A stretch of 32,000 nucleotides of DNA from Paenibacillus oralis. GTDB lineage: Bacteria > Bacillota > Bacilli > Paenibacillales > Paenibacillaceae. Position numbers: made by a program. The stretch spans positions 5,555,054-5,587,053 of the forward strand of contig NZ_RRCN01000001.1 in NCBI RefSeq assembly GCF_003863965.1, read 5' to 3'. Positions 11,001 to 14,000 of the stretch are shown in pieces (the first letter of the stretch is position 1; every line of letters starts with the position of its first letter).

Positions 11001-14000
11001 TTGGAGCAAGCCAAGAAGGATGGGGATTTGCCCGAGCACGCCAACCCTGCCGCCCTGGCCCGATATGTCTCAACTCTCGTGGCCGGCATGACGGTCCAGG
11101 CCGTGAACGGGGCCAGCCGTGAAGATCTCGAAGAAATGATCACCATCGCTCTGTTGGCATTGTCAGCATATGAATAATCGTGCGCCGAGAGGGGAATTGT
11201 CGGTGGACAAGAACTTGCAATTGGAGTTGTACGAGCTGTCGGGTCATCAGGCATCTTCTCTAACATTTTGATTTGATATTGATTGATGTCTGGCCGGCAC
11301 TGCCTAGGGGCAGTATAAGTTTAATCTCTCTTGTAACCCTTCCGAGACTTCTTCCGGCATCTCCCTGACCTTGATATCGCCACCTAAGAAAAGTAGCCAA
11401 TTTATGATTTCGGTTAATTCTTCCGAATGATGAACATTGATAAAAGCCTTTAAGATGGCTGTGGTTTGGTAAGGATTTGTATAGGAAAGTGAAACTTTTA
11501 ATGGATGGTATTTTTTGAACTGGGCAATCGCCTTGGGACCAAGTTCAATGACAAGGTTGATATCTTCTTCCTGCTTGCTTAATTGTTCTAAAATCTTTTT
11601 CTTGCTTGCTCTTTTTTTCGCAGGGTAGGGTTCTACGTCGGTGAGATTGTCGACAGGAACAATCCGCCTCTTTTCTTCCTCTAAGTCAAAGCCTTCAATT
11701 AACCATAAGCTTTTTTCCCGATAAAGGTGCAAGAGATAAATCGGATACGACTTTATTTCCTTCTCTTCTTCGGTGGAAACCAATAAATAGCTGTCCAAAA
11801 GCAGGATTTGGATAAGCTTTTCCAACATAGGATGGGGCAGGTCTGACAGATCAAGCAGGTCGGGATTATGGGGGTTGGTCCCTTCAAACAACAATATTTC
11901 ATTTAAAAGAACCAGGTCATCCTGCTGGTTTTCCGAGATCAGGCCGAGTAACTTTTCAGCTAAAGACTGACGACTCTTTAGATAAGGAAGTTGTTGATTT
12001 CTTGTGGCCATAAAGGCAATAAACAGAGCTTTAATTTCATTATTGGTAAAGCGGACCGTGGGCAGGACAGAGTTGTTCATGACAAAATAACCACCATCCC
12101 TTCCAACTTCAGCGACAAGCGGGATCCCCATGGCTTCAATTTCCCGGATATCTCGAATCGCTGTCGAACGAGAGATGTTGAATTCTTGCATGATTTCGGA
12201 AATGGTAAAGTGGGCGCGGTTGTTGATATATCGCATGATGGTATTAATCCGTTCAACTTTTTTCATCGGGCTCCCCTAAACAGTATCATTTTTTGACATG
12301 ATTTATGGTTATTATAAACCCATCAAGTGAAAAGACAAATCATTTGATAAATTTAAAAAAGAGGAAGGTTTTGAATATGGCAAATTATACCCTTGAAGAA
12401 AAAGACAGCTTTACCGTTTTAGGCATTGGGACTGAGCTTAAAAGCGATTATACGGATTATGCCGGCATAAACAAGGAAAAGGCAGATTTTTGGCAGGCCG
12501 TGAAAGAAGATGGAACGCTTGACACTTTAAAGGCTGTAGCCGAAAATGACTACATTTTTGCCGTGAACGAAGCGGTGAATAACAAGATGATGCATTATGC
12601 TGGTGTAATGAGCGAGGCCTCGCTACCGGAAGCAACCAGGGTTATTCAATTTCCTAAGGGGGAATACCTGGTTGTTAAAGGGGAAGGGAAGTCGGCTGAA
12701 GAGCTAAATAATACGCTTGCCGGCATTGCTTTTGGCCAAGCCTTGCCGGAAGCAAAAGATTTTGCCTATGTTGGCGGGCCAAATACATCGGTTGTGATGG
12801 GGCAGCGAAATGGTTTAGTATTTGGTGAAATGTGGATTCCTGTGGTTAGGAAATAAAGAGATCATAAGGGGGATGAGCATGTCCTATATCGTTGATTTTA
12901 AAAATGTGTCTACGGTTGGTCTAGAGTCTTCGCCTGTAGCGGAAACGCTTGCCGGTTTACGAGCGAATGAGGCCCGTTACTTTATGAACAAATATAAGCA
13001 TGAATTTACGGTTGTACCGGCCAGCGAAAGCCAGGAGGCCCTTGATTATGTGAACCGGATTTTGAAAGAAGAACGGGATATTGAGTTTGCGGCCAAACCT
13101 TTAGAGACGTCGCGTTTTCAAGTGGAAAATATCCAATTTACCTACGTCTTTTATGAGGATGGTCTTGGGCTCAATGTCATGTATACGATGGATGACCCTA
13201 AGAAACGGGCTGTTGGTTTAAAGCTTTCTGAGGGGATGGAGGTACCCAAGGAATTGGAAGGGAAGTTTAAGTTTGCTAGGCAGAAATCTAAACTAGCTGG
13301 AACCATTCGCGGTTCGTTCTTTGTAATTAAAGGAGAATATTAAAGGAAGCAGCAGGGGAGAATGGTGTCATTTTTTGTGACAAAAAGGCGGGGATAACGC
13401 CTTTTTTTGTTTTTCAATTTAACAAATTCTAGTTGACTTAGCCGTTAGGGGACTTTATACTCCATTTATTAAAACAGTTTTAAAAAGGGTTGAAAAGGAG
13501 TTGGAGCATGTCAACTTACACGTATAATACGATTCAGGTTAAGAAGATGAATATTGAGCTGGTTAAAAATGCCCTGAAAGCTCAGGGTATAGCTACAAAA
13601 GCATCTATTGCAGGCCTGACCAAGCTTAGTGTTGCCACCTGCGGAACGATACTTAACGAGCTGCTTGCCATAGGTGAAGTCATCGAACTAGAACCGGATG
13701 GTTCAAATGGCGGCAGACCAGCCAAGCAATATAAGTACAATGCAGACTTTGGATGCATTATCTGTCTTCTTGTCAGGACGGAAGGGGGCATTCATTCCAT
13801 CAGCTGCAGCATCGTGAATTTGCTTGGCGAGACTATAAGTGAAACTACATTGGAACTGTCTCATATCGACAGGGATGTTATCGACCAAATGATTGAAGGA
13901 TTAATCAGTGACAACGAGAATGTTCAAGCCATTGGTATCGGGATCCCGGGCGTCGTTCACCTTGGCGTGATTGGCGTATGTGATGTTCCGGATCTAGCTG

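Follow-up and report, generated by a model that had tools for sequence, protein, structure and literature searches.

Background

Several transcription regulators that combine a helix-turn-helix (HTH) domain with a WYL domain have been linked to stress and defence: DriD of Caulobacter and PafBC of Actinobacteria are activators of the HTH-WYL-WCX architecture that sense single-stranded DNA (ssDNA), and BrxR and CapW are WYL repressors of the BREX and CBASS defence systems. Here we analyse a locus of Paenibacillus oralis, in which a regulator of this kind is encoded divergently from two small genes, one for a Cass2/GyrI-like protein and the other for a 154-aa protein, the third-gene product at 12879–13343, which we call P154. 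The locus lies in a stretch of 32,000 nt (assembly GCF_003863965.1, contig NZ_RRCN01000001.1, positions 5,555,054–5,587,053 of the forward strand), hereafter the window, and window positions are used throughout. The three genes make up one copy of a 2.06-kb cassette (11295–13351) that has spread horizontally among the Bacillota.

The described systems resemble the cassette in parts. DriD and PafBC are the best full-length fold matches of the regulator (E-values 1.8e-10 to 6.3e-8) and, like it, are about 320 aa long, a long helical linker joining the HTH to the WYL domain; however, there is no detectable sequence similarity, and the genes controlled are unrelated to the DriD and PafBC regulons. 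BrxR and CapW share with the regulator the three-domain fold (E-value ~1e-6) and the location of the gene, divergent beside a mobile accessory operon, but they are shorter (~285 aa), and the operon of the cassette encodes no known defence protein. The Cass2/GyrI-like protein resembles Cass2 from the Vibrio cholerae integron (PF14526), SA2223 and E. coli SbmC/GyrI in being a single domain without a DNA-binding domain, carried on mobile DNA. The yobV/yobU pair of Bacillus subtilis, named in the first-pass annotation as a possible parallel, is likewise said to place a YafY-type regulator beside a GyrI-like gene. No description of the trio or of P154 was found in the searchable literature, in agreement with its designation as an undescribed module in the first-pass annotation of this DNA. 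Thus, the regulator and the Cass2 protein are new members of known families, and the cassette, P154 especially, is undescribed.

Results and discussion

A horizontally spread cassette of three genes

The three open reading frames (ORFs) proposed for this region are confirmed by the ORF listing and by the sequence, and together with their intervening segments they constitute the following features:

11304–12266, minus strand: HTH-WYL-WCX (YafY-type) transcription regulator, 320 aa (ORF listing, sequence, profiles and fold search)
12267–12376, no strand: divergent promoter/operator region, 110 bp (strong conservation in the cassette alignment)
12377–12856, plus strand: Cass2/GyrI-like stand-alone effector-binding protein, 159 aa (PF14526)
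12857–12878, plus strand: spacer with the P154 ribosome-binding site, 22 nt (read off the sequence)
12879–13343, plus strand: P154, soluble protein of an uncharacterised conserved family (homologue searches and AlphaFold2 model)
13344–13351, plus strand: final 8 nt of the block common to the genomes (blastn homology limits)

Retrieval of 80 genome loci containing P154 revealed the full trio in identical arrangement in 50 of them, with 73–95% (regulator) and 72–98% (Cass2) aa identity, and this gene-neighbourhood check bears out the idea that the three genes are conserved together as one block. The DNA homology extends in most loci from ~11295 to ~13351 (73–94% identity), i.e. from about 10 nt past the regulator stop codon to 8 nt past the P154 stop codon, and the flanking genes are unrelated. 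The right limit falls at ~13339–13352 in blastn alignments, except for two loci (L001 and L019) where it reaches 13381; on the left, the TetR gene is also common to a single locus, that of Paenibacillus sp. P8. P154 was found in 9 of 400 evenly drawn genomes of the phylum, but within the family to which the window belongs the figure is 4 of 5. The tree of the cassettes is star-like and shallow, with inner branches of 0.002–0.08 and end branches of 0.01–0.35; Clostridium, Alicyclobacillus and Thermoactinomycetaceae are nested among Bacillaceae, and the most divergent cassettes are two copies from Paenibacillus. The sharp block ends, unrelated flanks, patchy distribution and star-like tree show that the 2-kb unit, kept under purifying selection, has been transferred horizontally time and again. 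The unit itself contains no transposase or integrase and has no terminal repeats. The complete trio was also found on a plasmid of B. thuringiensis (NZ_CP097261, L081, 1096–9032), directly beside an IS6 transposase; it lies ~2 kb from an annotated gene for a Cry8Ea1-family delta-endotoxin, and the annotated P154 coding sequence overlaps that of Cass2 by 14 nt.

Median identities to the window, computed over 48 other cassettes, are 0.96 at codon positions 1 and 2 and 0.75 at position 3 for P154, 0.92 and 0.73 for the regulator, and 0.90 and 0.67 for Cass2, which makes P154 the most constrained of the three proteins; within the block, conservation is lowest in the 22-nt spacer (0.36 overall). 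Even when classes are compared, synonymous sites have not come close to saturation, and among relatives from the same genus the cassette shows 74–87% DNA identity versus 67–74% for the neighbouring ROK and major facilitator superfamily (MFS) transporter genes. The G+C content of the cassette follows that of its host (r=0.77, range 34–52%), therefore its residence in each lineage is not very recent. In P. oralis the AT bias asserted for the block is real but modest (42.1% G+C versus 48.4% in the left and 45.5% in the right flank).

The divergent orientation of the regulator, the 22-nt gap between the Cass2 stop codon (12854–12856) and the P154 ATG, and the separate ribosome-binding sites of the two operon genes can be read directly in the sequence, as previously noted: GAGGAAGG serves the Cass2 start at 12377, and AAGGGGG ends 6 nt 5' of the P154 ATG. 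The regulator has its own site, AGGGGAG, 4 nt 5' of its ATG. An upstream ATG (12305) was considered as the Cass2 start and rejected in favour of 12377, since the ribosome-binding site, the Pfam match (from residue 5) and the methionine of the homologues all agree on the latter.

The regulator belongs to the HTH-WYL-WCX class

Residues 6–60 of the regulator match PF08279 (HTH_11, E=1.8e-14 in Pfam) and correspond to an N-terminal winged helix-turn-helix. The Pfam WYL model PF13280 gives no match; the PADLOC WYL profile PDLC01457 spans residues 3–301 (E=4.5e-24), and another WYL profile was found with E=1.1e-5. The AlphaFold2 model has a mean predicted local distance difference test score (pLDDT) of 69 and is good in the HTH (~80–89 across most of residues 1–40) and in the region 150–320. 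It comprises a central WYL region of five β-strands (160–213), with the invariant W188, and a C-terminal α/β region corresponding to the WCX extension (222–318, pLDDT ~63–89). In the Foldseek search of the PDB all of the top 30 matches are PafBC, DriD, CapW or BrxR (E-values 1.8e-10 to 4.4e-5), mostly aligned over the full length (320–350 columns), and structures of the DriD C-terminal domain align over 189–193 columns; phmmer and profile searches of the PDB revealed no sequence similarity for the regulator. On the grounds of the PADLOC profile, the architecture of the model and the fold matches, the regulator is a member of the HTH-WYL-WCX class, with the HTH, WYL and WCX parts each recognised, which upholds its initial assignment. 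In length and linker it is nearest to the ssDNA-sensing activators DriD and PafBC.

Relatives of the regulator are named 'YafY family', 'HTH domain-containing protein' and occasionally 'decaprenyl diphosphate synthase' in the databases, the last being a mis-naming (e.g. P0317 and P0323). Copies 88–89% identical to it are filed under Chryseobacterium mucoviscidosis, Halomonas sp. ISL-60 and Chlamydia abortus (P0305, P0327 and P0390), records which probably come from contaminated or mislabelled assemblies.

The second gene encodes a stand-alone Cass2/GyrI-like domain

The PF14526 (Cass2) model matches residues 5–156 of the 159-aa protein with 108.5 bits (cut-off 27, E=4.6e-31), in support of the GyrI-like, effector-binding identity first proposed for this gene. 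In contrast to SbmC/GyrI, the protein remains under the cut-off of the SbmC-type model PF06445 (15.5 versus 26 bits). The solved relatives, 3lur and S. aureus SA2223 (5kat), were recognised by weak colinear profile matches only. Judging from the full-length family match, the protein is a stand-alone effector-binding domain, for which ligand binding is predicted. The P. oralis genome contains four more Cass2-domain matches (G000:C1 2910173, 3376087, 4867723 and 3818289; L105–L108), all inside open frames of 259–362 aa, which may be fusions to DNA-binding domains or regulators; the copy in the cassette is the sole stand-alone one. A Cass2-family match is also present in the B. subtilis control genome.

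P154: a large, tight family with an unmatched fold

The third gene had been called an orphan, which is wrong: a word-indexed protein search with P154 returned at least 8000 matches. Identities are known for the 120 matches listed, which are 75–95% identical to P154, all but one at least 88%; their hosts include Paenibacillus, Bacillus, Neobacillus, Clostridium, Alicyclobacillus, Tumebacillus and others. Scanned exhaustively with HMMER, the 50%-identity representatives yielded only 833 P154 clusters, many of them fragments or frameshifted. By these sequence comparisons the family is large yet very tight. Soil metagenomes, scanned with a 66%-identical member as the query, contain 80 loci of 58–74% G+C that encode P154 proteins 60–76% identical to that of the window, therefore the family reaches well beyond the Firmicutes. 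A search for more divergent relatives found only three. The gene of a 42%-identical relative adjoins genes for RNase H and a metallo-β-lactamase-fold protein and has neither WYL nor Cass2 neighbours. Among the 50% representatives, apparent 'fusions' with N-terminal extensions trace to wrongly called starts in high-GC DNA, and several 'divergent' ones are frameshifted; none of these is a domain fusion.

In a set of 156 sequences, conservation reaches 98% or more at 45 positions, which fall in three motifs, 24–34 (LAGLRA.EARY), 110–116 (RAVG.KL) and 130–148 (F.FA.Q.S.LAG..RGS.F). The invariant basic residues are R28, R33, R66, R110, K115 and R144. Searches of Pfam, NCBIfam, PADLOC, PHROGs and the PDB with the single sequence and with profiles gave nothing above noise; a match to the N-terminus of NAD-ligase (E=0.06) was treated as due to chance, and the possibility that P154 is a diverged GyrI-like protein was dismissed, as the profile-profile comparison with Cass2 returned a probability of only 1.3%.

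The AlphaFold2 model of P154 is confident (pLDDT 91.8, predicted template-modelling score 0.88) and shows two helices packed on a sheet with six main antiparallel strands and an additional short one. A Foldseek search of the PDB and BFVD gave no match at E≤0.001. The best weak matches (E-values 0.012–0.4) are p32/gC1qR, the type III secretion chaperone SycT, the C-terminal domain of MotA, and YbjN, which like P154 have helices packed on an antiparallel sheet, but none is a real match by template-modelling (TM) score (TM-scores 0.2–0.3, root mean square deviation 6–18 Å). The modelled fold should therefore be treated as one without a solved relative. P154 is, as first described, a soluble protein, and none of the family and fold searches gave it a significant match.

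Many of the matches listed bear the name 'phage tail protein' in NCBI and UniRef. This name is unsupported, since the confident model matches nothing in the PDB or BFVD. None of the weak fold matches from these two databases is a credible tail protein, and the PHROG search gave no match at E≤0.1. Among 50,697 phage records, one holds a copy (67.5% identical), and it is an UNVERIFIED_ORG 3.9-kb contig from wastewater. The ORF listing and Pfam revealed no phage genes adjoining the block in the window, and no phage-structural Pfam families were found in the flanking ORFs (one on each side) of the solo and high-GC P154 copies scanned.

P154 is separable from its partners

In ~30 of the 80 genome loci P154 occurs without the regulator and Cass2, so the three parts need not occur together, and P154 can be separated from its two partners. 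Directly upstream of several solo copies (for example in L075, L036, L056, L042, L070, L039 and L067) there are decayed 3' ends of Cass2, 25–100 nt long, therefore these copies descend from a Cass2-P154 arrangement. Conversely, the regulator-Cass2 pair without P154 exists in Bacillus sp. N5-665. The neighbours of solo P154 are heterogeneous and include AHSA1/SRPBCC proteins (three loci), MerR regulators (three loci), DinB, methyltransferases and permeases; taken together, most neighbours of the solo and high-GC copies are AHSA1, DinB, MerR, methyltransferase, VOC, GNAT or transporter genes.

The high-GC loci examined have no WYL or Cass2 neighbours, and the genes adjoining P154 there include VOC/bleomycin-resistance, GNAT, GFA, AHSA1 and Imm5-like ones. 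The only recurrent partner seen outside the Firmicutes is a 171-aa ORF located 3' of P154, on the same strand and at a fixed distance of 106 nt, in five soil metagenome loci (L134–L137 and L141); the one scanned, from L134, matches Imm5-like, a putative immunity protein family.

P. oralis itself has a single P154 copy. Neobacillus sp. NPDC097160 carries both the full trio (L051) and, at a second locus that retains part of a decayed Cass2 gene, a solo P154 following an AHSA1 gene (L075), and another relative (G006) has a 220-nt P154 fragment besides its trio. From such co-occurrence of the trio with solo or fragment copies in one genome it follows that the P154 family duplicates and decays within genomes.

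The control region is conserved

The 110-bp intergenic region has a median identity of 0.86 overall across the 48 cassettes, versus 67–75% at the third codon positions of the genes, which shows, at the level of sequence comparison, that the divergent promoter region is under selective constraint. The region was aligned across 47 copies, and pattern searches suggest the following candidate elements:

12311–12338, minus strand: promoter-like site for the regulator, TTGTCT-16 nt-TATAAT (10/12 in the consensus scan, a pattern match only)
12290–12304 and 12337–12351: arms of an inverted repeat, 15 nt each and 80% complementary, candidate operator

In addition, three half-palindromes resembling ATCA-NN-TGA(T), at ~12294, 12322 and 12340, were read by eye and are candidate operators only. 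A TTGACA hexamer occurs at 12293–12298 without a properly spaced -10 element, and no promoter with proper spacing was found for the Cass2 operon. Such a layout might suit activator-dependent transcription as with DriD/PafBC, which is speculation.

Possible functions of the cassette

By analogy with the described systems we tentatively favour the view that the cassette, when induced, protects the cell from DNA-damaging or xenobiotic stress and is not a part of a phage, which we hold to be a plausible reading, somewhat short of probable. A dimer of the regulator would bind the repeat motifs of the intergenic region and control both divergent promoters, and a signal bound by its WYL domain would switch the operon on. 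The likeliest signal would be single-stranded nucleic acid arising from DNA damage, as in DriD, PafBC and CapW, and a second possible signal would be an effector bound by Cass2, or a small molecule. Cass2 would then bind or sequester a planar or cationic toxic molecule, and P154, by attaching to nucleic acid or to a cellular target that is itself conserved, may supply a second, independent protection. This role of P154 is suggested by the extreme constraint on P154, its invariant arginine and lysine residues, and its survival as a solo gene among genes of the detoxification or immunity type (VOC/bleomycin-resistance, GNAT, DinB, AHSA1 and Imm5-like).

Several observations weigh against the protection module. 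Neither an active site nor a pocket or partner can be recognised for P154, and the genes around it vary, so that calling it a 'protection factor' amounts to guilt by weak association. The promoter of the Cass2 operon is not convincingly definable. Finally, high-GC copies of P154 lack WYL and Cass2 neighbours, hence its role need not be tied to that of the other two genes. Or perhaps P154 represents a new-fold, cross-phylum, mobile family of stand-alone protective proteins, and in the Firmicutes its gene came, along with that of a Cass2 binder, under the control of an ssDNA-sensing WYL switch to form an inducible resistance cassette? We regard this bolder proposal as rather doubtful; in such a case P154 could, for example, protect the target of, or confer immunity to, some widespread natural toxin directed at DNA or gyrase.

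An anti-phage role, hinted at in the first-pass annotation, would mean that two small effectors, acting upon infection, are otherwise kept repressed by a WYL regulator like BrxR or CapW. BrxR and CapW are indeed among the fold matches of the regulator, WYL regulators of such fold head defence islands, the cassette is mobile and patchily distributed, and a few solo P154 copies adjoin nSTAND NTPases, a UvrD-like helicase or ToxN/AbiQ. On the other hand, nothing specific to defence was found in the two small proteins: Cass2 and P154 match zero PADLOC families at E≤1 and contain no nuclease, NTPase, protease or transmembrane domain from Pfam. Moreover, P154 is under strong purifying selection and has diversified very little, unlike typical defence effectors, and the genes beside its solo copies are mostly of the detoxification type or ordinary. 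On balance we consider a defence system unlikely.

It is known that Rob- and BmrR-type regulators bind their effectors through GyrI-like/Cass2 domains, and the trio might be viewed as a regulatory accessory module, with Cass2 as the effector sensor acting in trans on the WYL regulator, P154 as a co- or anti-regulator, and the output genes elsewhere. The four longer Cass2 ORFs of the same genome, maybe regulator fusions, and the existence of the WYL-Cass2 pair without P154 would agree with such a module. However, a self-contained 2-kb unit that moves between very different genomes argues against host-specific targets, and many genomes maintain P154 alone, which makes this alternative more unlikely still.

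That the three genes are chance neighbours without a functional link might be suspected from the occurrence of P154 alone in ~30 of the 80 loci and in all high-GC loci examined, and of the pair without P154, but the same order, spacing and conserved promoter in 50 of the 80 loci, across at least 18 genera and amid unrelated flanks, largely refute it, leaving it very improbable. The reading of P154 as a phage tail or virion protein, and of the block as a prophage remnant, is hardly credible at all, given that the database name and the single phage-labelled record, itself an unverified contig, are opposed by the lack of a PHROG family, of a tail-protein fold in BFVD or the PDB, and of phage genes beside the block or phage-structural Pfam families among the neighbours scanned in other loci. 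The remaining probability belongs to something else altogether.

Repeats and recombination joints around the cassette

Two further features lie immediately downstream of the cassette:

13356–13374, plus strand: truncated palindromic terminator-like repeat, host DNA outside the cassette (genome repeat search)
13382–13406, plus strand: intrinsic-terminator-like hairpin closing the operon in P. oralis (pattern search)

The repeat copy reported to follow the block is thus present; it matches 9430–9448 and is a truncated half of a palindromic element, whose complete version at 9430–9470 is a terminator-like hairpin (GGGAGAATTGTGTCA, 8 nt, TGACGCAATTCTCCC). The genome contains five exact copies of the element and one with two mismatches, and the full copies are perfect hairpins. 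Three of the copies are found within 9 kb on another contig (G000:C2 ~270108, 276192 and 278840; L085–L087), each adjoining a conserved sequence similar to TCCTTATTTTATAAG, which looks like a small repeat family of the genome.

The 27-nt repeat pair was considered as the boundary of a mobile element and rejected. A 96%-identical relative (G010, L090) shares 9508–13351 with the window, breaking exactly at 13351, and lacks 8057–9507 (a 161-aa gene and a truncated LysR-like ORF) and 13352–15870 (the ROK regulator and MFS transporter), which are replaced by ~120 bp and ~440 bp, respectively. Both absent segments carry one palindromic repeat at the edge facing the cassette. Because this relative has the interior without the repeat-bearing segments, the repeats mark indel or recombination joints of the host genome and not the ends of the cassette. 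Just before the complete hairpin, 16 nt at 9403–9418 (AATATTAAAGTAAGCA) match the last 8 nt of P154 and the 8-nt tail; this stretch may be what is left of a former P154 3' end, or else a recombination joint.

Conclusions

WYL regulators increasingly appear to be switches that sense nucleic acids and govern damage and defence responses, and a tiny self-contained operon, present in hundreds of species of soil Firmicutes, would be an easy model for the study of sensing by a WYL switch. P154 is one of the more notable 'known unknowns': its fold is confidently modelled yet matches nothing solved, and its family is tight, patchy, evidently mobile and systematically misnamed. Dropping the name 'phage tail protein' would stop false prophage calls, and the target of P154, once found, could reveal a new mechanism of resistance or protection.

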